From assembly GCA_038858525.1 (NCBI GenBank), contig JAWCFL010000049.1, forward strand, positions 1 through 11,534: a DNA stretch of 11,534 nt, given 5' to 3'. Shown here one piece after another: positions 21 through 11,534 of this stretch (positions are counted from its first letter, which is position 1; the number at the start of each line of letters is the position of its first letter). Origin of the DNA: Candidatus Jordarchaeales archaeon. Its GTDB lineage: Archaea > Asgardarchaeota > Jordiarchaeia > Jordiarchaeales > Freyrarchaeaceae. The notes beneath the pieces were generated by a model. It was not told the origin of the DNA, made no database searches, and saw nothing but the letters and a program-made list of their open reading frames with translations. The position numbers and the translations under genes were made by a program.

Positions 21-279
21 GAAACAAAACAAGTCCCGATGAAAAGGGAACGGCAACAATTATGTGCGGGGGAAATATGAGCCCCCGCTCATGAGAAACA
101 AAACAAGTCCCGATGAAAAGGGAACGGCAACCACAGCCCATACGTGGGTGATGGATGCGCTTTGTGAGGGAAACAAAACAAGTCCCGATGAAAAGGGAAC
201 GGCAATCTATGGCATTCCCAGTAAACCGCACTATTCTAGTCAGAAACAAAATGAGTCTGATGAAAAAGGTAATGGCGAC
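21..279 (+). CRISPR. CRISPR array: 4 repeats (21-57, 95-131, 170-206, degenerate 243-279), 3 spacers (58-94, 132-169, 207-242)
   Basis: Consensus GAAACAAAACAAGTCCCGATGAAAAGGGAACGGCAAC (37 bp) is exact in repeats 1-2, has a terminal C>T in repeat 3, and has 6 substitutions plus 2 indels in repeat 4. Hairpin TCCC-GATGAAAA-GGGA is followed by exactly 8 nt (ACGGCAAC), the expected Cas6-generated 5' tag. This and the degenerate last repeat indicate + strand transcription. The array may continue upstream of the window. Confidence 0.96.
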
Positions 280-299
280 GTGAACGATGCTTTTTTGTT

Positions 300-1140
300 T
301 TTGGGGAGGTGATAGAGTGGTGGGTGGATTTTTTGTGTGTTGTGTGATGGGTGTTTTATTTTGGTTTGTTGGGTTTTTGAGTTGTGGGCTTTGTCTTTGT
401 TGAGTAGGGTGTGTTTTTAGTTGTGGGTGTGTTTTGATGGGTTGGTGGGGGAGGGTGGTTGTGTGGGCTGAGGGTTTGTGTTGTTTGTGGGGGGTGGGAG
501 GGTGATTGTGGTTTTGTCTTGGTGAGTTTTTGTTTTGGGGTGGGTGTGTTGTAACTGTTTTTGTGGTTTTGGGTGTGTTGGGAGATAATTTGGGGGTTAT
601 TTGCATGCTTAGAGTTGGTTTTGATTGGCCGGTTTTCTTTTTTTGGGGTTTTGCGTTGGTGGTGTTAGTTTGTGAGTGTTGCTGGTTAGTGTTGGATTGG
701 TGGGTTTAGTGGCGTTGGGGTGATGGTTTCGTCGTGTGATGGAGGGCGTGCTTAGTCTGGTGGAGGGCGGCGTATCATTGAAAATGTTGGGTGGTGGGGT
801 GGGTTGGCGTCGTCGGTGCAACCTGTCATGGAGGCGTTTTGAGTGTTTACTTATGGGTAATGGGGGGTGTTAGTGGATGTAGAGGGTGGTTGGATTCTGT
901 TCCTTTGCTTTTAGTTTTGGGAGCTCTGGATATTGGTGGTGTCTTTCTGGGGGTGCGTGGTGGTGCTTGTTGGTTTTTCTTTGGCTTTGGGCGGTTCTGG
1001 GGGTGGCGGTTTGCTTTTCGTATTTATTTTTGGTTTTGTGTTTTTGCATTTATTTTTGGTAAAGTTTTTATTTGTGTATTTATTTTTGTTTTTTGGGGTG
1101 GTTGGTTGCGTTTTTTGAGGGTTTTTTGTTCTGGTGGCGG
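300..1140. other. Low-complexity G/T-rich non-coding region between array and Argonaute genes
   Basis: 301-360 has 53/60 G+T and no C. The ORFs here translate to V/G/F/W/L-dominated strings with no recognisable motif. Confidence 0.75.
1058..1077 (+). promoter_or_regulatory. Candidate archaeal BRE/TATA promoter for the Argonaute genes
   Basis: GGTAAAGTTTTTATTTGTGT, about 70 nt upstream of the likely GTG start; resembles the clearer cas10 promoter. Confidence 0.45.
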
Positions 1141-1147
1141 TGTGGGT

Positions 1148-2386
1148 GTGAGTGTTGATTGGAGCAGGGTTGAGGGGGTTTTTGGTGGTGTTGCTGGAAG
1201 GGTTGCTGAGGTTTTGGTTGAGCTTGTTAGGAGGAGGTGCTTTGAGGAGCTGGGGGTTTTTGACGTTAGGGTTTCTGATAGGGGTGGGGTAACTACTTTG
1301 TGGGCGAGGGTTGGAGGTGATTTGTGGGGTAGGGTTTTTAGGGAGGCTGAGGCTGTTGAGGGTTTGCTTCTTGAGAGGTTTAGGCCTGATTTGAGGCATG
1401 TGCTTGGTTTTTTCGTGTCTAGGCGTCCTTTGGAGCCTGTTGTGGTGGCTCGCTACTCGTGCCTTTTGGGCGTTGAGGGAGCTGAGAGGTATCGTGTTTT
1501 GAGCTTGGCTTGCAGGAGGCTTGAGGAGGAGCTTGGTGTTTTGGCTGAGAGGATGGGTTATTCTTCTATAGGTCTCGTCGTTATCGGCGGGGAGGAGGTT
1601 CCAGAGGAGTTGTCGCTGAGTGTTGGTGGTGTGAGTGTTCGGCTTAGGCGTGAAATGTTTGGTGTTGTTGATTGGGGTGAGGTTTGGGGTAGGGATGTTG
1701 TTAAGCGCGCTGTTGGGAGAGCTGTTAAAAGGGCTTTGAGGGGGGCTGGGTTCCACGTTGAGGGGCTTTCTGCCTTTGAGGGGAGGAGTGTGGTTGAAGA
1801 TGAGAGGGTTTCTGTTTATCCCGGGTTTTCCTTCAGCGTCGAGGTGTTGGAGGACGGGCATGTTGCGCTCTCCATTAATCCGAGGCATAGGGTTGTCTCG
1901 CGCCTGACCTTGTGGGAGGAGTTTGGGAGGAGCGCTGATAGGCTACGTTCAGCGTCGGAGCTGTTTTCCGGGCGTAGGGCTGTTTTCCGTGAAAGGACGT
2001 GCGTTGTGGGGGGAGTTGACGAGGCTAGGCTTGTCTCGGACAGGTTGGAGGAGCTTGGCGGCGTCTCTCTTCTCGAGCATTGCAGGCGTTTTGACCCTGG
2101 ATTGGTTGAGGGGGTTGATGAGGGTGAGCCGCTTGTCCATGTATATGTTAAGGGTGAGAGGCTCTACTGCCCTCCTTCCCTTCTGCGCATGATTTACACC
2201 CTTGAGGACTTAAAGGCTATTGGGCTCAGTAGGAGGGTTCAGAAGGCTGCCCAGATGAGCCCGGATGAGCAGGCTAAGGCGAGCTTGAATTACCTTTCCG
2301 TTGTTAGGCGGGTTGACTTTGGGGGGCAAGTTGTAGAGTTTGCTCCGGAAATGGTTGAGCTGGAGGGTGGATGGGTTGAGGGTTAG
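1148..2386 (+). CDS. Split prokaryotic Argonaute, N-terminal half (extra N-terminal segment + N-L1-PAZ-L2), ~412 aa
   Basis: L1-like VYPGFSFSVEVLEDGHVALSINPRHRVVSRLTLWE, PAZ-like SLLEH...DEGEPLVHV...LYCPPSLLR, L2-like QMSPDE...VEFAPEMVEL. Lies directly upstream of a MID-PIWI gene. The ORF track start (791) is in low-complexity sequence; GTG at 1148 (or 1142) is the likely start, which is uncertain. Confidence 0.82.
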   Translation: MSVDWSRVEGVFGGVAGRVAEVLVELVRRRCFEELGVFDVRVSDRGGVTTLWARVGGDLWGRVFREAEAVEGLLLERFRPDLRHVLGFFVSRRPLEPVVVARYSCLLGVEGAERYRVLSLACRRLEEELGVLAERMGYSSIGLVVIGGEEVPEELSLSVGGVSVRLRREMFGVVDWGEVWGRDVVKRAVGRAVKRALRGAGFHVEGLSAFEGRSVVEDERVSVYPGFSFSVEVLEDGHVALSINPRHRVVSRLTLWEEFGRSADRLRSASELFSGRRAVFRERTCVVGGVDEARLVSDRLEELGGVSLLEHCRRFDPGLVEGVDEGEPLVHVYVKGERLYCPPSLLRMIYTLEDLKAIGLSRRVQKAAQMSPDEQAKASLNYLSVVRRVDFGGQVVEFAPEMVELEGGWVEG

Positions 2387-3593
2387 GCGGCTTCCGAGGG
2401 CTGTGTTGAGGTTTAGGGGTGGAACGGCGCCGACGCCTTATGAAGGCTTCAAGCATGGGTTTAAGCCTGTTAGTGGACCATCAAAGCTTAGAGTTTGCGT
2501 CATGTTCGAGCCTGACGTCAAGAGAGAGGCCGAGGAGTTCTGCTACAACCTTGAGCGGGGAGTTAGGGGGTTCGGTGGCTTAGGAGACTGGTTCATGGTT
2601 GAACCAGAGTGGATTTGGGTTCGCGTAGGGGAGGACGGGTTTGAGGAAGCCGCTAACTGTGTAGAAGAGCTAAACCCGGACCTCGCGCTGGCTTTCATAC
2701 CGGACTCCATGGTTGTGAGTTACGAGGACGATCCCTACATGCCTTTGAAGAGGAAGCTTTCAGCGGTGGGGTTGCCGAGCCAGATGGTTGAGCGGTCAAC
2801 GCTTGAAAACTTGAGGGGGAGCGAGTACGTGCTGTTTAACGTGGCTCTTAGCATCTATGCGAAGGCTGGCGGAGTTCCTTGGACTCTGGACGACGCCTTA
2901 ACGCACCACCTAACGGTGGGGATCAACGTTTCAGAAAGAAAACACGGCGCCGTGGCTGCGTGCTACACGCATGGTTCGGGTGAATCCATGAAGTTTGACT
3001 GGGCTACTGCTCCAGCCAGCCTAGACATGCTAGGCGAGGCGGTCTTTCAAGTAGTTGGCTGGGCCGCCGAAAACTACATCGATTCATTGGGGGGCCCGCC
3101 TTCATCGGTCGCCATACACGTTGACGCGGCATCACCCATACTAGAAGCTGGCTTCGGCGCTGCGATTCAGCGCCTTGAAAGCGAAGGCTTGCTTAAAGAA
3201 AAAGCGGTGTACAGCGTGGTATCCATAAACAAGTCAGGGCCGCCGAGGGTTTACGTTAAGATGGGTGACACATTCATGATGCCCGATAAGGGTGCCTGCA
3301 CTGTCCTAGACTATGAGAGGGGGGTGGTCTGCACCTCAGGTTACCCTGAGCAGCCCGCCCTCTCACCTTTGGGGGTGGTGAAGCCTTTAATGGTGGAAGT
3401 CGTCGAGTCAAACTATGAACACAGCATAACAGAAATAATGAGGGACGTTTACTGGCTGAGCGAGATACACTGGGCGTCTGGTTTCAGGACTCCAAGGCTT
3501 CCTGTGACGCTACTTTACCCTGGCAGGATGTGTTCCTTTTTCAGGGCGGGTGTAAAGCCAACATCGCTGAGGGGAACAGCATGGTTCCTCTAG
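2376..3593 (+). CDS. ago: Split prokaryotic Argonaute, MID-PIWI half, predicted nuclease-inactive, ~405 aa
   Basis: Leading LPRAVLRFRGG strand. MID 5'-phosphate pocket Y133-K137-Q148-N167-K175 (numbering of the 2340 ORF; DPYMPLKRK, LPSQMV, NVALSIYAKAGGVPW). PIWI strands VGINVS, AIHVDA and LPVTLLYPG, and a C-terminal WFL. Start is TTG 2376 (GGAGG at 2362-2366) or GTG 2367. Confidence 0.92.
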   Translation: MRVRRLPRAVLRFRGGTAPTPYEGFKHGFKPVSGPSKLRVCVMFEPDVKREAEEFCYNLERGVRGFGGLGDWFMVEPEWIWVRVGEDGFEEAANCVEELNPDLALAFIPDSMVVSYEDDPYMPLKRKLSAVGLPSQMVERSTLENLRGSEYVLFNVALSIYAKAGGVPWTLDDALTHHLTVGINVSERKHGAVAACYTHGSGESMKFDWATAPASLDMLGEAVFQVVGWAAENYIDSLGGPPSSVAIHVDAASPILEAGFGAAIQRLESEGLLKEKAVYSVVSINKSGPPRVYVKMGDTFMMPDKGACTVLDYERGVVCTSGYPEQPALSPLGVVKPLMVEVVESNYEHSITEIMRDVYWLSEIHWASGFRTPRLPVTLLYPGRMCSFFRAGVKPTSLRGTAWFL

Positions 3594-3717: not shown

Positions 3718-3999
3718 TCACAGCTTTCTTTTTGGTAGTTCGTTTTTCCATTTTTCTTTAAGTTTCCTTGCCGCTTTCTCGTGGAGGTAAAACTCCTCAG
3801 CGTCGCCCTCCATAACGAGGTATTCGTCTCCCTCTTTAAGCCAAGTTATTCTTTTACCGTTCTTGACCGCTACACCGGCAACTCCCACGCTGGACGTAAC
3901 TTCCTTCGCTATGTTCTCCGCGAGCTCTTCGTCCACTGTTACTATAATCTCCGAGCCACCAATTAATTTTAGGAGCTCACTCGCATGCATTCTACTCAT
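3718..3999 (-). CDS. Hypothetical 93-aa protein, last gene of the type III operon
   Basis: Its ATG overlaps the preceding TGA (ATGA at 3996-3999), with GAGG upstream. Charged E/K-rich protein-like composition. No family recognised. Confidence 0.8.
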   Translation of the reverse strand: MSRMHASELLKLIGGSEIIVTVDEELAENIAKEVTSSVGVAGVAVKNGKRITWLKEGDEYLVMEGDAEEFYLHEKAARKLKEKWKNELPKRKL

Positions 4000-4949
4000 C
4001 GGTTAACCTCCACGGCTTCGTCTAGGTCTCTCAGCTTAAACTTTGACTTGGCCTCGTCTACAGCCTTTGTGATTATCCTCGCGTCCTCTCTTTTTCTTAC
4101 AGGTATTCCTCCTCTGTAATTGTAAGTGTAGGCTTCGAGCAGGCTCATCTTCACTCTGCCTAGAGCTGAAAGTTGATCATTCACTTTCCTCTTAGCGTAC
4201 TTGAAGCGCCCTATCAGCATTGGCTTCCCTTCATGGAGCCGCATCCCCATTAAGAGCAGCCCAAGCTGCTCCCAGGTGAGGTTTATGAATGAAACGGTGA
4301 ACTTGAAAACCGAGCCGGGATCGACGAGAACGTAATTTCCTTTGTTGTGGCCGAAACTCATCGTCCTAACTTCGTATCCCCCTCTCTCCATGAGGGCGTC
4401 CGAGAAGTTAACCTTCGACCCCAAGCTTAACGCTCCAAACATGTCGCAGACCACGCAGACCTCCTCGGGAGGGGAGCAGTGCCCTCTTTCAGGAATAGTT
4501 CCGCCGTACTTCGGGTAACCGTACACCTTCAAGTGACGCCTGTTAAACCTGTTCTGACTCACTCTTCCTCTTACCTTGGAGACGGAGTAGCATGCTTCTA
4601 TAGTGTTGTCGTGCGGCATGAAGAGGTGCTCTATTCTGCTTCTGACCGATCCTTTCAATGTGGATCCGGGAATCACCGGTTCCCCATTTATGTTGGCGTT
4701 TTCCTCAACTAGCTCGCCAAGAGCATTTATTTCAGTTACTTTCTCCACGTCTACTGACGATATTTTTGGTAGTGGATTGGCGAAGAACTTTCTTCCTGTT
4801 CCGATAAATAGGAAGCTGTTTACAACGTCAGCCCTAATCACAAGTCCCCCTGAGACCAACTCGGGGATCAGCCTGTCCCTGCTTCTTTCGTTCCTGCTCC
4901 CGTATGAAGCTACCTTTAGTGGTTGTGTTCTATCTGTGTGCCTCTGCAA
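3996..4949 (-). CDS. csm5: Cas7-group RAMP, large terminal Csm5-like subunit, 317 aa
   Basis: FLFIGTG first strand, PVIPGSTLKGSVRSRIE, CVVCDMFG...VNFSDA, and a degenerate G-loop (IGRFKYAK..LGRV). Terminal position among the RAMPs. TTG start uncertain. Confidence 0.72.
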   Translation of the reverse strand: MQRHTDRTQPLKVASYGSRNERSRDRLIPELVSGGLVIRADVVNSFLFIGTGRKFFANPLPKISSVDVEKVTEINALGELVEENANINGEPVIPGSTLKGSVRSRIEHLFMPHDNTIEACYSVSKVRGRVSQNRFNRRHLKVYGYPKYGGTIPERGHCSPPEEVCVVCDMFGALSLGSKVNFSDALMERGGYEVRTMSFGHNKGNYVLVDPGSVFKFTVSFINLTWEQLGLLLMGMRLHEGKPMLIGRFKYAKRKVNDQLSALGRVKMSLLEAYTYNYRGGIPVRKREDARIITKAVDEAKSKFKLRDLDEAVEVNR

Positions 4950-5799
4950 ATTTTATCCAAGCCTCCTCAAACGCGTTAAGTAGCTTTTCCGTGTAGTCCC
5001 CTTCCGGTTGGAGCACAACTGGGTAGTCGTCTTCTCCGAGCGCCTTGATGGTGTCCGGAATTTGTTTACAGTCAAGCGTCGCTTCCCTCACGGTGATTTT
5101 CGCCCTCCCGAATCCCCTGCTCTTCATTCCCCCAACATGGATCCTTCCGTCATTTATTCCTTTGATCGCCGCTGCAACCAGCCCAACCTGGTAGTTTGGC
5201 ATGTTCTTCATTACAAGCTCGAAGTCGAACTCGCTACCCGGGTTTAGGAACTCCACGGTGTAAAGTGCACGCTTAGCCACTGCCCCCGTCCTCCTGTCTA
5301 TAGCCACCCCCCTCCTCGTCCCGAAGCTATAGGACCCATCGATCCCATAGCAGTCCTTCACGGCCACGTGGCTCATGATGCCTGTGGCGCCGAAAATTCT
5401 GCATGCTAAACAGTAGTTCTTCTCCACGAAGTCGAGCAGCCTACTTATCGCCTCCTCGACGTCTTCGCTCCTCTTAACTTCCTCTTGGAGACGCATCAGT
5501 TTGTTTCCATACCTCTTAGCACAGCTGGAGTCCAAGTATGGGTAGCACGCGTTCAGGTTGTTGCCTTTGAGTCTCGCAGTCCTTATTATGCCCTCAGCAG
5601 CTGACCTGAGAACACCCTTAAGGGACGATCCCGGAATATAGGGAATAAGCCTGTCGCCGATCGTTACTTTTATGCATGAGAGATCTATGAGGTCGGTTAT
5701 CTTGTGTCCCTGCCCCGCCCCAACTCTGAGCGGGGAGACCGCCGTGAGTTTGCCTCTAAACACCACTTCTCTCTTGTTCACGTTGAATCCCAGCATCAC
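4930..5799 (-). CDS. csm3: Cas7-group RAMP (Csm3-like), 289 aa
   Basis: SPLRVGAG, YIPGSSLKGVLRS, CLACRIFG, GVAIDRRTG, VGGMKSRGFG. Start is GTG 5799 or ATG 5796 after GGAGG. Confidence 0.9.
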   Translation of the reverse strand: MMLGFNVNKREVVFRGKLTAVSPLRVGAGQGHKITDLIDLSCIKVTIGDRLIPYIPGSSLKGVLRSAAEGIIRTARLKGNNLNACYPYLDSSCAKRYGNKLMRLQEEVKRSEDVEEAISRLLDFVEKNYCLACRIFGATGIMSHVAVKDCYGIDGSYSFGTRRGVAIDRRTGAVAKRALYTVEFLNPGSEFDFELVMKNMPNYQVGLVAAAIKGINDGRIHVGGMKSRGFGRAKITVREATLDCKQIPDTIKALGEDDYPVVLQPEGDYTEKLLNAFEEAWIKFAEAHR

Positions 5800-6491
5800 G
5801 CCCCCTCCAAGACCTTTACTTCTACACCTTTTCCTCCACTCAACAGGTCGTTGACGCTGATTTTCTTAATGGTCATATTTTCCAGCCTGACAGCGCCCAT
5901 CCCGGTCGACTTTTTTCCTCCGATCTGTATGTTTCCATCGACGAGCTCCTTCAAGATGGCTTTGAGGAGCTTTGCCTCTTCACTGTTCCCCTCTAAGTCT
6001 ATGTTTTCGATGACCATCCTGAACTTGAAGCGGGTGCCCCTTGATACCGCCTCGACGTTGTAGAGGTGCCCGGGGAAGACGGAGCCCAAAACCCTGTCTA
6101 TCGCTACTCCAGGCTTAACTAGTGTTGAAACGTTCTCCTCTAGAGGAAGGGCATCGGATATCCTAACGTGGGCAGCCAAGCTCTTACTTCCAAAGAGGCG
6201 GCACACGACGCACGCCTCTTTTTCACAGACCTTCACGGGCGGGAGACAGACACTTAAACCGCTGCCTCTAGCGATTCTTTCAGCTTCAGCCCTCAGCGAC
6301 CCCTTCAACGATGAACCAGGAATATACGGGACATCCCTACCGTCAACTTTTACCCTGATGACAGGGTTGTCCAGGGTCGATGAAGTCGCCTCCGCCGCTC
6401 CAATGTGAAGCAACGAGTCGCAGACGAGCTCCCCTTCAACAAGGTACCTTATCTTCAACCTGTCAAAGTCCGCATTCACTTCCCCACTCAT
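5796..6491 (-). CDS. csm3: Csm3 (Cas7) backbone RNase, 231 aa
   Basis: LLHIGA, catalytic-loop LDNPV, YIPGSSLKGSLR, CVVCRLFGS, GVAIDR, IGGKKSTGMG. ATGA overlap with the upstream gene. Confidence 0.93.
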   Translation of the reverse strand: MSGEVNADFDRLKIRYLVEGELVCDSLLHIGAAEATSSTLDNPVIRVKVDGRDVPYIPGSSLKGSLRAEAERIARGSGLSVCLPPVKVCEKEACVVCRLFGSKSLAAHVRISDALPLEENVSTLVKPGVAIDRVLGSVFPGHLYNVEAVSRGTRFKFRMVIENIDLEGNSEEAKLLKAILKELVDGNIQIGGKKSTGMGAVRLENMTIKKISVNDLLSGGKGVEVKVLEGA

Positions 6492-6940
6492 TTCTTTATC
6501 CTCCCCGAGTTGGCCCGCGTTCTCTCAAAGTATTTTTCCGGGTTAAGGAACATCTCTTTAAGGTGATCAAACCCACCAGACTTGAACTTCTCCGCATCCA
6601 CCTTTACGCTATCCTCTCTCTTGAGTTCCTTGATTATCTCGTAGGACCATTTGAACATGCCTAGAAACTCTTTAAGCTTCTTCGCATCGTTGTTCAATTC
6701 CTTGCAGACACAGATTATCTCGTCAGCTACCTTTTTAGGAGATATGAGCTTGCGCTCCGCCTGCCTCATCAGAAAAATCAAAAAGTAAATCACTGCTTCA
6801 CTGTTCTCTGGCCTCTCATTAATGACTTCTAGAAGGTTTTCTATCTGGTTTTTTTCTGTATCATTGCTGGCCAGCGCCGCCACGTAGACAGCCCTATCCA
6901 TCATTTCCTTGAAACTCATTTTTTTAGAGCTTTCGGACAT
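6488..6940 (-). CDS. csm2: Probable small subunit Cas11 (Csm2-like), 150 aa
   Basis: Small, predicted all-helical protein with FLIFLMRQAER and LKEFLGMFKW segments, located between csx10 and cas7 as in type III-D. Strong GGAGGTGA Shine-Dalgarno. Confidence 0.68.
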   Translation of the reverse strand: MSESSKKMSFKEMMDRAVYVAALASNDTEKNQIENLLEVINERPENSEAVIYFLIFLMRQAERKLISPKKVADEIICVCKELNNDAKKLKEFLGMFKWSYEIIKELKREDSVKVDAEKFKSGGFDHLKEMFLNPEKYFERTRANSGRIKK

Positions 6941-6942
6941 GT

Positions 6943-8103
6943 TTAATCACCTCCCATCCACAATTTGAATCTTCCAAACCCCATGTGGGTGAAGCCACCA
7001 ACACCTTTAACTTCGAGCAGAAGGAGGGGTTCAGCTAGATCCTTCATGTCGCTAGTTCTAAAGTAGAGGACTGACCCGGGGCTTAAAGCGTGTATCACAG
7101 GCCGCCTTTGGTCGTACTTAAGGTTCCACCCGGAGACGGACACCGTTCCGCCCTGTGAGCACAGGTAATCGGCTTTCGCGCTCACCCTGCGGCCAAGCAG
7201 GTCCTCGTAGCTCCTTAAAGCCTCCACGACTACTTCTTCTCTTAGAACAGTCGACTTCAAACCTTTGTCAAGCACAAGCTTGAAAGCTGGTGAAAGGCAC
7301 TCCAAGCAGAAGTACTCCGCGTGCTTCACGCTCTTCACCATTCTCGAAAGCCAGTCTCTGAGATTCTCCCTGGAGACGGATTCAACCATGGTTACGCCGA
7401 ACCCCCTGCTCTTAGCCCCCCCAACCCTCAGCTCTCCGCCTTTCATCTTCTCAAGGTAATCCGTCAGCCGGCTTGAGGGCGACAGCACCGTGAAGGCATA
7501 CCTCTGACCCGGCCTTACGGTGTCTATGGAGAACAGCATGCCTTCCTCAGCGATCCCCCTAGCCCTATTGATGGCCGTCATAGCCACCCTCAATGACTCG
7601 ACGGGTACACTCTCGCCGCATTTGGGGCAGAGCCAGCCTTCAGCCGGCTCCAACGAGACGAGACCACACCTTTGTTCCTGCATCATTGGACACGCTATAT
7701 TAGCTCTCCATAATTCCTTCCCGCTCTTAAGGGCGTCGATGAACTTATCGAGCAGCGAGCCATGCCAGCCGCACTTCTTACACTTAAATGCGAAGCTTGG
7801 AGCTGGCACCGCTGCCACTCCGCACTCTTCATGTATCGGGGTTGCATCGCTGAATACGGGATTGGTCCTGGAAAACTCGTTGTACAGGCAGCCGTCAGCC
7901 TTATGGCAGCTGCTGCACGTCACCTCCCTATCCTTCCCTTCAAGGAAGTCGCAGAACTCTGAGAGGATAGCTGCCCCGACAGCTCCTCTAACCATCCACG
8001 ACGGTAGGTGGTTTCTCGAGTAGTGCACCCCCCTTCTAACCTTTCCGAGGCCGATGAACAGCGGAGAGCCGGCCTTTACGACGACGGAAACCAGGTCCAA
8101 CAT
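6943..8103 (-). CDS. csx10: Csx10 (Cas5-group two-RAMP subunit of type III-D), 386 aa
   Basis: SPLFIG, HLPSWMVRGAVG, FSDATP, TAINRARGIAEEGMLF and VGGAKSRGFG, then a second RAMP with PGSVLYF and GVGGFTHMGFGRF. GAGGTG Shine-Dalgarno. Confidence 0.85.
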   Translation of the reverse strand: MLDLVSVVVKAGSPLFIGLGKVRRGVHYSRNHLPSWMVRGAVGAAILSEFCDFLEGKDREVTCSSCHKADGCLYNEFSRTNPVFSDATPIHEECGVAAVPAPSFAFKCKKCGWHGSLLDKFIDALKSGKELWRANIACPMMQEQRCGLVSLEPAEGWLCPKCGESVPVESLRVAMTAINRARGIAEEGMLFSIDTVRPGQRYAFTVLSPSSRLTDYLEKMKGGELRVGGAKSRGFGVTMVESVSRENLRDWLSRMVKSVKHAEYFCLECLSPAFKLVLDKGLKSTVLREEVVVEALRSYEDLLGRRVSAKADYLCSQGGTVSVSGWNLKYDQRRPVIHALSPGSVLYFRTSDMKDLAEPLLLLEVKGVGGFTHMGFGRFKLWMGGD

Positions 8104-8104
8104 C

Positions 8105-8752
8105 TCACCTCATCAAGGACAGGAGCCTTCTCACCTTCTCGTCTCCCGGGACTTCGCCCTCCACGCTTCTGACATTCACCCTTACCAGCCCCTTCTTTCC
8201 ACCCAGCCCCCTGAACTCCAGCTCTCTCAATGACGCCAACAGGAGAACCCACTCTTCGACGTCGAGGTCGCGCAGCAGTATCTTTGAGCGGAAAACCGTT
8301 TTTGGGGGGAGAAACTCGTAAGTGTAGAGGAAGCCCTCCTTTACCGTTCCGGTCTCCCTATCTATAGCTATTCCGACCCCAGTCTGGGGGGTTACGTCAT
8401 CCGCTAGTGCATCGTAAAAGACGGCTTTCCCCTCAACTTCCGGTCCGCCGAACACGTCGCAGGAAAGACACTTCCCTTCGAGTCCAGCGTGCTCTTCAAC
8501 CATCTCCTCTGGGCGAGGAGACGTGCAGCTTCTCCTCCTATCCGAGTTCGCCAAAGCCGTAAAATAAGCTCTCAGGGCGCCCTTGAGCGTCGATGCTGGA
8601 ATAATGAACCTAGCGCTTCCTCTACTGTAAACCATTCTTCTGACTGGATTGTCTATGTGGCGGAACTCCGAGGGCTGCCCAGTTCCCACGTGCAGCTTGC
8701 TTAGGACTTCGAGCTCAATGTTGAGTGTAGCCGCACGGCTAAACTTTCTCAG
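8105..8752 (-). CDS. csm3: Cas7-group RAMP (Csm3-like), ~215 aa, probable CTG start
   Basis: LHVGTG, HIDNPV, IIPASTLKGALR, CLSCDVFG, IAIDRETG, GLGGKKG. The first RAMP strand (TLNIELEVLSKLH) lies upstream of the ORF-track GTG at 8689, so the start must be earlier. CTG at 8752 follows AGGAGGAGG. Confidence 0.88.
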   Translation of the reverse strand: MRKFSRAATLNIELEVLSKLHVGTGQPSEFRHIDNPVRRMVYSRGSARFIIPASTLKGALRAYFTALANSDRRRSCTSPRPEEMVEEHAGLEGKCLSCDVFGGPEVEGKAVFYDALADDVTPQTGVGIAIDRETGTVKEGFLYTYEFLPPKTVFRSKILLRDLDVEEWVLLLASLRELEFRGLGGKKGLVRVNVRSVEGEVPGDEKVRRLLSLMR

Positions 8753-11237
8753 GGCTTATCCCTCCTCCTAGGACCTTGACCAGGTCTAACATGTCTGAAA
8801 GGCGAATAGACACACTTGAGCTGTGAGGATTAAGGAGCATGAACACTTTTTGCAGAAGGTTAGGGCTCCTTCCTCCCCTAAACGTCTCCCTCATCACGTA
8901 TAGCATAGCTAAAGCCTTCTCCTTGCTCGCCTCTCTCCCGGCGCTCTTGAACATGTTCAAAATCCTGACGCTCCACCTAGCCAAGCTCCTGAGCTCCTTG
9001 AACCACTCATCGTCCACTTTAAAGTTCCCATTTCCCCTGATGGACTCCCAGAACTTGTCGAATGACAGGAGGCAGCGCAGAAGCTGTGTGAAGTCCCTTT
9101 CTAGAGCAGCTTCAGAGAGATGGGCGCCGTCCTTCGGAACAAAGTAAGGCTTACATGTTAGCCCCCAGCTCTCGATTGTTGCTCTCAAGCTCTCCATACC
9201 GTCCCGCCCAGGGGACCCCGCGGTCAGCCACTCGAAATCAATATATCCCTTAGCGCACTGCTCAACGTCGCTGTAACTCTGCATGTAGAGCTTCTTAGCG
9301 TTCTTCAAGAGCCACTCGGCAACCTCCATCATGCTGTAAACGGGACGCCTCGCGTTCGAATTCACGACGGCAACGGAAAGCGTCAAGACCCCACCAGTAA
9401 GCTCATAGAACTTCGAAATGAGAACCAAGGCTACAGGGATACCGAGGTAGCCTGGAACGAACCACAACAAGTCGTCCCCACCCATATAAATCTCGCCGAA
9501 CATGAGCCTAGCCTCGTCAAACTCACGGCCACACCTTTTAGCATAGTCATAAACACAACTCCTCACCTCACCCATAACCTTATCCAAGAGAATGTTTTTC
9601 TCCACCAGCTCAGTTATACTCAAACTCCTAGCTAGAAACTCCGAGGCACGGTTACCATCCGCCTTAACAACGGAGACGTCAGGAACCTCCAACTCCCCCC
9701 TAGTGACATCCGCTATTTTTTCAGGGTGACACCCGGCGATAAAATCCATCACGTTAAGGACAACGTCACTCAGCCTGACGCCGCTCAACTTCCCAGACCT
9801 AATACACTCATCAAACACCCTCGCCAGCCCCCTCTCACTCTTTCCGACATCATACTTGTTCATGCACGCCTCACAGTAGTGAAGCTCCCTCTCGGAAACA
9901 TAGTGCTTTGCCGGGCGTTCACCGCACGCCTCACACATCTTAACGCTGCCCAAGTAGACCTCTCCTCCACCACCAACCACCCTCTTCCTGTAGGCAAGCT
10001 TCCTCATGGCTAACGTCCTCACAGCCCCAAAACTATGAGTCTTCATAGTTCCGACGCCGAAACGCAAGTAGTCCACCGTGAAGCCGCAACCACCCTTAAC
10101 GTGCCCCACGAAAGCGTCAAGCATGCGGCAAGCCACATCATCAGCAAGATCAGCCGGGCATATTAGCATAATGTTCCCCCCGCCACTAAACAACACGCAC
10201 TCAGGGGGGAGCACATCCAGAACAGCCCCATAAACAGCCTCGTCGAAAGCCTCCTCCACCAGTATGCTTCCACCCTTAATCTCGTAAAGACTGTTCCCCC
10301 CATCAACGAAGCGCTTAATACCCCTAGCGTCACCCACCACCATCGCCAACTCCCCCTCCTCCCCCAAAACATAGCCTCCCCTTCCACCCAGCTCATTGAG
10401 AAGCCACCTCGAAGCATACTCGCCACTCCTCTCACCGAAAACCTGCGTCATCCTCTTAACGTCATCATCACCAATAGACTCCCAAAACCTCCACTCACCA
10501 AAACGCTCCTCATCCACATCGAAGCCAGAACCCCTCAAAACCTCAACCGCAAAACGCAACACCCTATCACTACTAGCAGTCGCAACATCAGCCTCACTCA
10601 CCAGCTGAGCAAGCCACCTAGCTTTCGCAGGAGCAGAATCAGGAAAATGATGAAAACGGACAGCACTACACAAAAGATCAACCAAGCCATCATCCAAAAC
10701 ACCTCCAAGCAACTCTCTAACCTTATGCTCCCCCCTCTCGTTGTGGTTACGCCAATCAACAGGCTTACCTAAATCATGAAGCAAACCAGCAAGGCGAGCA
10801 ACCTGCGCCTTATCATCACCCATCCTCCTATTAACAGCCAAACAATAAGCAACAGCACCAGTCTCACGCAAATGAACATAAAGCGAAGAAAAATTCAAGC
10901 CAGGACGAGTATCGGCAGGAAGCCTCAAGAAAAAACCAACCTTCCCCCAACACTCTCCAAGCTTCCCAAGAACATCCCCCCCAAACTTCCTCCCAACAAG
11001 CAACCTAACATGACGCCTCCTCCTTTCAGACGGAAGACCACCCTCAAAGAAAGAAAAAAAGCAATCCGCAACACCCTCAACACCAAGACCACCCATCCCA
11101 GCAACAAAATCCAAAAAATCCCTAAACAAACGATAAGACTCATCAGCAACACGACCAACACAATCATTATCCAAAACATCAACATAACAAGGAACACCAC
11201 CATCCAAACGAGGAACAAAAAACCCCCTAACAACCAT
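8739..11237 (-). CDS. cas10: Cas10 large subunit with HD nuclease and Palm/cyclase domains, 832 aa
   Basis: HD domain (HLRETG...LLHDLGKP...FHH...EADVATASSDR), Palm1 (VVGDARGIKRF, FSGGGN), Zn finger (CEAC...CEAC), Palm2 (KADGN...YMGGDDL). ATG at 11237 is preceded by GGAGGGTG. Confidence 0.96.
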   Translation of the reverse strand: MVVRGFFVPRLDGGVPCYVDVLDNDCVGRVADESYRLFRDFLDFVAGMGGLGVEGVADCFFSFFEGGLPSERRRRHVRLLVGRKFGGDVLGKLGECWGKVGFFLRLPADTRPGLNFSSLYVHLRETGAVAYCLAVNRRMGDDKAQVARLAGLLHDLGKPVDWRNHNERGEHKVRELLGGVLDDGLVDLLCSAVRFHHFPDSAPAKARWLAQLVSEADVATASSDRVLRFAVEVLRGSGFDVDEERFGEWRFWESIGDDDVKRMTQVFGERSGEYASRWLLNELGGRGGYVLGEEGELAMVVGDARGIKRFVDGGNSLYEIKGGSILVEEAFDEAVYGAVLDVLPPECVLFSGGGNIMLICPADLADDVACRMLDAFVGHVKGGCGFTVDYLRFGVGTMKTHSFGAVRTLAMRKLAYRKRVVGGGGEVYLGSVKMCEACGERPAKHYVSERELHYCEACMNKYDVGKSERGLARVFDECIRSGKLSGVRLSDVVLNVMDFIAGCHPEKIADVTRGELEVPDVSVVKADGNRASEFLARSLSITELVEKNILLDKVMGEVRSCVYDYAKRCGREFDEARLMFGEIYMGGDDLLWFVPGYLGIPVALVLISKFYELTGGVLTLSVAVVNSNARRPVYSMMEVAEWLLKNAKKLYMQSYSDVEQCAKGYIDFEWLTAGSPGRDGMESLRATIESWGLTCKPYFVPKDGAHLSEAALERDFTQLLRCLLSFDKFWESIRGNGNFKVDDEWFKELRSLARWSVRILNMFKSAGREASKEKALAMLYVMRETFRGGRSPNLLQKVFMLLNPHSSSVSIRLSDMLDLVKVLGGGISPEKV

Positions 11238-11239
11238 CA

Positions 11240-11534
11240 AAACACCCTCCAACCAACCAAACACACAAAACAACATTAAAAACTCAACACATATAAATTT
11301 TTACCCAAAATCTCTACACAAAAACAAAATAAAAAAACGAAAACCACAAACCAACACCACAAAACCCCCAACAACAAACACAAAAACACACCACACCATC
11401 ACAACCGCACCAACAACGCAACACCCACCCACCCACAAAACCCCCACCCAACAACCACACAAAGAAAAACAAAAAACCACCCAACCAATCAAAAAATTCT
11501 CCACCCCAGAAAACCACACAACAACAAGCACAAC
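11240..11534. other. Low-complexity A/C-rich (minus strand G/T-rich) non-coding region upstream of cas10
   Basis: 11401-11460 has 58/60 A+C and no T; mirror image of 300-1140. Confidence 0.75.
11287..11306 (-). promoter_or_regulatory. Archaeal BRE/TATA promoter of the cas10 operon
   Basis: Minus strand GGGTAAAAA-TTTATAT-GTGT; the TATA box is ~54 nt upstream of the cas10 ATG. Confidence 0.72.

Follow-up and report, generated by a model that had tools for sequence, protein, structure and literature searches.

What does an Argonaute do when it lies between a CRISPR array and a type III-D operon and brings no effector of its own? We addressed this question for a pair of overlapping genes, which together encode a prokaryotic Argonaute (pAgo), on an 11.5-kb stretch of DNA referred to here as the window; it is the whole of contig C49 in a 2.09-Mb, 63-contig metagenome-assembled genome (label G000) of an Asgard archaeon of the Jordarchaeia type. 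The role of CRISPR-associated Argonautes has been open since the MpAgo and Methanopyrus cases were noticed. From left to right, the window holds the array, about 830 nt of G+T-rich DNA, the two overlapping genes on the + strand, a 124-nt gap, and a convergent operon on the − strand that runs from 11276 to 3718. This layout and the gene calls bear out a sequence-only reading of the same DNA, which had placed a split, nuclease-dead pAgo between the array and the type III-D operon, and we likewise found no effector-type gene accompanying the pair within the window. The interpretation offered in that reading, a hybrid of Argonaute and type III, is only partly supported: the conserved partner of these pAgos is the CRISPR adaptation module and not the type III-D genes.

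The two halves of the Argonaute

The pair consists of the following two genes.

1106..2386, + strand: gene for the pAgo N-half (426 aa, starting with TTG); a clade-specific alpha/beta domain spans residues 1-99 and the N-L1-PAZ-L2 part residues 100-426
2376..3593, + strand (starts possible at 2340, 2367 and 2376): pAgo MID-PIWI gene, ~405-417 aa, matched by Pfam Piwi

The MID-PIWI protein matches the Piwi family of Pfam (PF02171) at 3.1e-13 with 50 bits, the cut-off being 28.9. The N-half protein has no family in Pfam or NCBIfam, and its domains were assigned by structure comparison. The AlphaFold model of the N-half, built on eight homologues, has a predicted local distance difference test (pLDDT) score of 84.8, and its residues 100-426 align with residues 6-339 of CbAgo (6qzk) with a Z score of 17.9 over 303 aligned residues; the model also matches CpAgo (Z 18.2), PliAgo (Z 19.8) and TtAgo (Foldseek, 3e-16). 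By this comparison the N, L1, PAZ and L2 domains are present on the separate N-half chain, where a PAZ-sized region aligns. The Piwi match and the alignment of the N-half model to long pAgos together uphold the claim that the two overlapping genes make up one long pAgo. The N-half stop codon lies at 2384-2386, and the overlap with the MID-PIWI open reading frame (ORF) amounts to 11-47 nt according to the start chosen. The N-half start itself had been put at 1148, which is 14 codons late: the homologous start is the TTG at 1106, to which the ATG start of the L088 orthologue aligns, L088 being the closest relative. A search of 1.84 billion proteins with an N-half profile retrieved about 30 stand-alone relatives of 350-465 aa and, as weaker matches, the first ~340 residues of proteins of 716-902 aa. 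We also considered a frameshifted single gene and ruled it out, because the PIWI proteins of all relatives are ~400 aa long, their N-half has a gene to itself, and several loci show no linkage between the halves.

The first 99 residues of the N-half (window 1106-1402) form a confidently modeled beta-beta-alpha-beta-beta-alpha domain (pLDDT 91), which precedes the Argonaute N domain and touches PIWI in the complex model; long pAgos have no such domain. Foldseek returned no PDB match for these residues at an E value of 0.001 or better, and the best VIA Z score, 7.0 to ACT/ferredoxin-like folds, is that of a generic alpha/beta fold and within the noise range.

When the N-half and MID-PIWI proteins were modeled as a heterodimer, a check that the sequence-only reading had named, the interaction prediction score from aligned errors (ipSAE) was 0.86 compared with 0.34 for the best control, a pass that shows likeness and not binding and may reflect memory of solved single-chain Argonautes. 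The ipSAE mark that the model reached is also reached by 58 of 80 solved complexes and by 2 of 110 mismatched pairs. The model runs share at least 85% of their contacts, with a partner pLDDT of at least 84.

The residues of the MID pocket (Tyr-133, Lys-137, Gln-148, Asn-167, and Lys-175) are intact, and YKQNK is invariant in 18 sequences of the clade; judged by these residues, the pocket is of the canonical 5′-phosphate type and not of the MID-OH type found in MpAgo. The catalytic tetrad of this copy reads N-?-D-G: Asn stands in place of the first Asp (GINVS), the third residue is retained (IHVDA), Gly occupies the fourth position, and the Glu finger, which is the second tetrad position, is not assignable. 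The earlier label of nuclease-dead is thus a reasonable one for this copy, even with the Glu finger unplaced. Among the 18 clade sequences, 8 have a DEDH or DEDD tetrad, and the tetrad is degenerate in the Asgard subclade, where the Baldrarchaeia-type members have Glu or Gln as the third residue and L088 has D-?-E-N. Compared with the L088 orthologues, the N-half has a ratio of nonsynonymous to synonymous substitution rates (dN/dS) of 0.12 and PIWI one of 0.14, and, because of these values, we conclude from the sequence comparison that the pAgo genes are under purifying selection and not decaying. Because the tetrad is broken, the Asgard copy is predicted, most likely, to bind guide and target without cutting.

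The split clade and its CRISPR neighbors

Genome and metagenome scans yielded 19 lineages of this pAgo (a lineage being defined by less than 85% identity), that is, the present one and 18 others. The two genes are found in all 19, and every close relative of the MID-PIWI protein is ~400 aa long and has a separate N-half of ~420 aa, encoded upstream of PIWI, commonly with a 4-nt overlap, or elsewhere in the same locus. The hosts belong to the Thermoproteota, Nezhaarchaeota, and Baldrarchaeia, in addition to this Jordarchaeia/Freyarchaeota pair, and every clade member comes from an uncultured thermophile. In a maximum-likelihood tree that included no named references for long-A or long-B, the 18 split sequences group as a single clade with support of 99/98; next to it are single-chain pAgos from haloarchaea (747-892 aa) and one from a cyanobacterium (775 aa), and an Archaeoglobaceae sequence (L077) lies in the other half of the tree. 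A profile of the MID-PIWI family, compared with the Argonautes in the PDB, matched CbAgo (1.4e-55) and CpAgo (5e-55) best, with AfAgo (9e-24), RsAgo (1e-12), and MpAgo (5.8e-6) far behind; AaAgo (4e-32) and TtAgo (2e-19) also scored better than RsAgo and the short pAgos (1e-15 to 1e-17). Because the clade sits beside single-chain pAgos in the tree and its profile is closest to CbAgo and CpAgo, we conclude that it is, by these sequence comparisons, a split derivative of long-A-like single-chain pAgos in which the split is ancestral and conserved. The phylogeny, which was another of the checks named beforehand, thus sets the pAgo within one well-supported split clade next to single-chain long pAgos.

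One subgroup has a PIWI ORF that appears shortened: its length is ~298 aa in each of L011, L104, and L106, L105 has 354 aa, and L112 has 241 aa. In this subgroup, the PIWI gene is preceded by a gene for a 167-169 aa protein of no known family and by an AAA ATPase gene in place of the N-half; in L106, the N-half lies ~5 kb from the short PIWI, beside Cas2, Cas1, and Cas1′. Gene breakage, an overlooked start codon, or an additional split could explain the short ORFs.

A gene for Cas1, Cas1′ (a second, divergent Cas1), Cas2, or Cas4 is present on the same contig in 14 of the 18 other lineages; the other four contigs are at most 4.2 kb long, and three of them carry a gene for a weak match to the CARF (CRISPR-associated Rossmann fold) family. 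Several types of gene order occur. In one, Cas2 is divergent from N-half-PIWI-wHTH-Cas1-Cas1′ (wHTH, winged helix-turn-helix), which form one apparent operon; in another, N-half-Cas1 is followed by Cas2 and Cas1′ on the opposite strand and then by PIWI; a third reads PIWI, Cas4, CARF, Cas1′, Cas2, Cas1, N-half, Cas2. The cas1 and cas2 genes separate the N-half from PIWI in several arrangements, and the gene downstream of PIWI varies among the relatives (wHTH, Cas1, Cas4, or CARF-like). Because the linkage survives this repeated shuffling of genes, it argues for a functional tie to spacer acquisition, and the pattern suggests, at the level of gene neighborhoods, that two immune systems, Argonaute and CRISPR, cooperate.

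Further, the adaptation genes concerned have features of their own. Next to the N-half lies a distinct Cas2 paralogue, which has an IQYSAF or IQYSVF motif and is divergent from the N-half in at least seven lineages, and the other Cas2 of the module (EYSVY type; LQLSVY in L003) pairs with Cas1′. Most pAgo-linked modules have Cas1′ beside a normal Cas1, and Cas1′ has lost a conserved acidic residue in 14 of 14 copies and a conserved His in 9 of the 14. Examples are the following.

L008:1829-2107, L013:1674-1940, L003:8436-8702, L004:4088-4369: Cas2 paralogue divergent from the N-half
L008:6429-7196, L102:2651-3601, and, in the own genome of the present pAgo, C50:8345-9322: Cas1′

In that genome, contig C50 carries Cas2, Cas1′, Cas1, and then, at its very end, Cas4, which is 53% identical to the Cas4 encoded directly upstream of the N-half in L088. 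Because C50 ends with cas4 and the cas4 orthologue of L088 directly precedes the N-half, C50 and C49 are probably neighbors across an assembly break.

The pAgo was not found in the ten other genomes of the class that we examined (11 including this one), and the RAMP of this III-D operon was not found in the four nearest genomes checked, three of the same genus and one of the same family. We conclude that the pAgo/III-D locus is accessory DNA.

A proposed role in spacer acquisition and its rivals

We put forward, at about even chances, that the clade is a CRISPR-locus accessory that is tied to spacer-acquisition genes and acts in acquisition. The two chains would assemble into a heterodimer resembling a long pAgo, the MID pocket of which would hold a 5′-phosphorylated guide; the guide-loaded heterodimer would recognize invader nucleic acid and then direct, or supply, DNA to the Cas1-Cas2 integrase. 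Where the tetrad is intact, the pAgo may itself generate the fragments, and tetrad-dead copies, this one among them, may be the targeting or recruiting part only. The clade would accordingly be tied to Cas1, the degenerate Cas1′, one or two Cas2 proteins, and Cas4 and not to a particular effector type. A bolder form of this proposal, which we advance only tentatively, is that the split pAgo is part of a distinct archaeal spacer-acquisition machine together with Cas1, the degenerate Cas1′, the dedicated Cas2, and Cas4, in which the guide-loaded Argonaute picks the DNA to be memorized, as an Argonaute-driven primed adaptation.

Several points weigh against a role in acquisition. The genes cas1, cas2, and cas4 are missing from the window, where the CRISPR genes are the array and the III-D set only, and the ends of C50 and C49 have no repeat or overlap in common. 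Many of the related contigs are short, and the lineages have a single common ancestor, so that conservation of the neighborhood could in part be inheritance. A pAgo whose tetrad is dead needs a separate partner for any output; conversely, with its Glu finger unplaced, this copy may have residual nuclease activity.

We weighed three other explanations. First, the pAgo may be an independent defense module that merely lies within a defense or CRISPR island and acts by guide-dependent binding alone or through an effector encoded elsewhere. This explanation is consistent with the known clustering of defense genes, with the absence of adaptation genes from contig C49, and with the patchy distribution of the pAgo (1 of 11 genomes of the class, the nearest genomes checked also being without this III-D RAMP). 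However, linkage to cas adaptation genes is all but universal in the four archaeal phyla or classes concerned, it survives many rearrangements, including those in which the two halves are interleaved with cas1 and cas2, and a distinct Cas2 paralogue accompanies the N-half in divergent orientation. We consider an independent module unlikely, if still a serious contender.

Second, the sequence-only reading had proposed an Ago-type III-D hybrid, in which the dead pAgo loads fragments made by Csm3 or the Cas10 HD domain, primes the complex, or uses Cas10 signaling as its output. The operon on which this proposal draws has the following genes.

3718-11276, − strand: type III-D operon with Cas10, Csx10-like, and Csx7-type RAMPs and proteins of 150 and 93 aa
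8739..11276, − strand: Cas10, 845 aa; palm2 and HD matches, HD at residue 167 and GGDD at residue 599
8105..8689, − strand: Csx7-like RAMP, 194 aa (Pfam/NCBIfam)
6943..8103, − strand: Csx10-like (Cas5-type) RAMP; full-length TIGR02674 match, 1.4e-15 and 57 bits, below the curated cut-off of 177
6488..6940, − strand: 150-aa protein without a family match, in the position of the small subunit (putatively Cas11-like)
5796..6491, − strand: Csx7 (Cas7-type RAMP); TIGR02581, 140 bits, above cut-off
4930..5799, − strand: Csx7 (Cas7-type RAMP); TIGR02581, 155 bits, above the NCBIfam cut-off
3996..4949, − strand: RAMP protein, 317 aa, Csx7/Csm5-like (Pfam/NCBIfam)
3718..3999, − strand: 93-aa protein of no known family; its gene ends the operon and overlaps the RAMP gene upstream of it by 4 nt

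By its gene content (a Cas10 with HD and GGDD, a Csx10-like protein, and several Csx7 RAMPs), this is a type III-D gene set, and the hybrid gains from the pAgo directly adjoining an operon whose Cas10 keeps both HD and GGDD. The homologues repeatedly have genes of the CARF family as neighbors (Csx1, the Cas_APE2256 type, and a weakly CARF-like gene of ~525 aa), and Csx7-like RAMPs are found at one related locus, L106. However, L106 is the only 1 of the 18 other lineages with type III RAMP or Cas10 genes in its retrieved flanks, compared with the 14 that have Cas1, Cas1′, Cas2, or Cas4; the homologues thus occur mostly without type III genes, and neither a conserved adjacency to type III-D nor its standing as the specific partner is supported. 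Further, the convergent orientation means that there is no shared transcript, and a 5′-phosphate pocket is, from what is established about MID pockets, ill-suited to guides of the CRISPR RNA (crRNA) type with a 5′-OH. The 93-aa “orphan,” which had been suggested as an output of the pAgo, is made the tail gene of the III-D operon by its 4-nt overlap; it has no Pfam or NCBIfam match, no usable atlas match, and no homologue in the related pAgo loci. We therefore regard the hybrid as improbable; most likely, the III-D genes simply serve this CRISPR locus as its local effector module. Given the CARF genes that recur near the homologues, the pAgo may still be tied more loosely to type III signaling.

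Third, a decaying remnant, in which catalysis was lost and the genes were eroded by local C>T mutation pressure, would account for the lost tetrad residues, for the excess of C>T over T>C changes in the N-half relative to the L088 orthologue (108 and 8 on the sense strand), and for a TTG start where the orthologue has ATG, but it is very hard to reconcile with the low dN/dS values, two intact ORFs, retention of the MID pocket and all family-invariant residues, and an entire Asgard subclade that is tetrad-degenerate yet persistent.

The acquisition role that we favor can be set beside what is known of other pAgos. CRISPR-linked pAgos and split pAgos are each already known. Closest in sequence and fold are the long-A proteins CbAgo and CpAgo of Clostridium butyricum and C. 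perfringens (6qzk and 9jh7), with residues 6-342 of which the N-half aligns; they have the same YK-type 5′-phosphate pocket, and the catalytic DEDX tetrad of long-A pAgos is found, as DEDH or DEDD, in several clade members. However, they are single chains of ~750 aa, active DNA-guided nucleases, and not linked to CRISPR, whereas the clade has two genes, an extra N-terminal domain of ~100 aa, and a position in CRISPR loci, in this copy together with a dead tetrad. The fAfAgo pair (AfAgo and AfAgo-N) resembles ours in having an upstream N-terminal gene and a MID-PIWI gene whose products form a heterodimer (modeled here) and in having an inactive PIWI, as in this copy. Split long-B pAgos of this kind have a lacking or reduced PAZ and a conserved downstream effector gene, and the study that describes them makes no mention of CRISPR (Manakova et al. 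2024, PMC10954474). In contrast, the present clade groups with long-A-like proteins, keeps a PAZ-sized region, and is set among cas adaptation genes; downstream of PIWI, there is no effector-type gene in this window, and in several relatives the gene found there is weakly CARF-like.

The MpAgo group (Marinitoga piezophila and Thermotoga profunda) occurs in the order Cas1-Cas2-Cas6-pAgo-Cmr, and the Ago of Methanopyrus kandleri lies next to cas1/cas2 (PMC6299218, PMC5995195). A hand-over from Ago to Cas1-Cas2 in spacer acquisition has been proposed for MpAgo and the M. kandleri Ago and never tested (PMC5995195). Our clade is similar to this group in that the pAgo lies inside a CRISPR locus near cas1/cas2 (the array and III-D here, adaptation genes in most relatives). 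However, the MpAgo proteins are single-chain and catalytically active and have a MID-OH pocket, without the YK motif, for 5′-OH guides (PMC6299218), and their similarity to the clade is weak. The pocket (YK-Q-N-K), the long-A affinity, and the PAZ-sized region thus confirm that this pAgo is distinct from MpAgo as well as from AfAgo-type split pAgos. The short pAgo systems (SPARTA, SPARSA, and SPARDA) also have a MID-PIWI protein of ~400 aa, an inactive tetrad, and a separate partner equivalent to the N-lobe, but that partner is an APAZ protein that lacks PAZ and has a TIR, SIR2, or nuclease effector fused to it or paired with it, whereas the partner in the clade has a PAZ-sized region and no effector domain, and the short chains are among the more distant profile matches.

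We did not find the combination seen in the clade (a long-A-like split, a PAZ-sized region, an extra N-terminal domain, and a Cas1-Cas1′-Cas2-Cas4 setting) in the searchable literature, the coverage of which is incomplete, and, as far as that literature shows, this is the first split pAgo of the long-A type with a PAZ-sized region. The clade provides a sharper handle on what CRISPR-associated Argonautes do, because its linkage to adaptation genes extends across four archaeal lineages and survives shuffling and because it has both tetrad-intact and tetrad-dead members. It also brings in a degenerate second Cas1 and a dedicated Cas2, and it places a dead-tetrad pAgo without an obvious effector in an Asgard archaeon.

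The array, flanking DNA, and strand skew

The remaining features of the window lie outside the two gene sets.

21..279, + strand: CRISPR array with four 37-nt repeats and 3 spacers
280..1105, no strand: non-coding G+T-rich stretch, with 91% G+T on the + strand at 401-600
1015..1096, + strand: three tandem ~26-nt units that each contain TATTTATTTTTG and precede the N-half start by 10-90 nt (repeat analysis)
11277..11534, − strand: region 5′ of cas10, 88% A+C on the + strand, mirroring the skew of the left end; contig end

The fourth repeat of the array is degenerate, chiefly by C>T and A>G changes, and the shape of the repeats, a stem and then an 8-nt tail, suggests that the array is oriented along the + strand. 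We found no recognizable gene in the ~830 nt between the array and the N-half, and the ORFs listed within 280-1105 are compositional artefacts. A Cas2 remnant was sought in this stretch by tblastn with nine Cas2 proteins, which gave zero matches anywhere on contig C49, and purine/pyrimidine-space scans and alignments for a hypermutated array or a cas4 relic scored no better than shuffles. No Rfam family was found within the window. The tandem units at 1015-1096 could, from their sequence and position, be repeated TATA-like promoter elements.

Both ends of C49 show an extreme, mirror-image strand skew (280-2800 on the + strand and 9300-11534 on the − strand). From its level at 401-600, the G+T content of the + strand declines smoothly to ~55% by 2800, into the N-half; at the other end, A+C is 88% at 11201-11400 and declines smoothly into cas10, the 5′ half of which is G+T-rich on its sense strand. 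In the same genome, G+T (or A+C) makes up 72% or more of a 300-nt stretch in 30 regions, many of which lie at divergent gene starts; examples of the regions are the following.

C1:191901-194250, C33:1651-3400, C50:9801-11200: skewed regions of G000

Both cas1 loci have such a region in their 5′ flanks, and others lie at the 5′ ends of the EF-1alpha, aIF2-gamma, class II tRNA synthetase, and Csx1 genes. Across 1276 long ORFs, the third-position ratio T/(C+T) drops from 0.57 to ~0.43 over the first 1.2 kb. The skew looks like the result of deamination acting on the non-template strand close to where transcription starts, although it is unusually strong and the agreement is not full; transcription of individual genes as the full cause is contradicted by the cas4 gene of C50, the sense strand of which is A+C-rich.

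Two apparent arrays on C25 and C48, called by a crude repeat finder, turned out to be coding repeats and not CRISPR. At C33:1028-1800, a pair of arrays stands back to back, and their repeats differ (30 nt and ~32 nt); the second array includes a G+T-rich spacer, and the skew begins right after its last, slightly degenerate repeat and extends into cas1.

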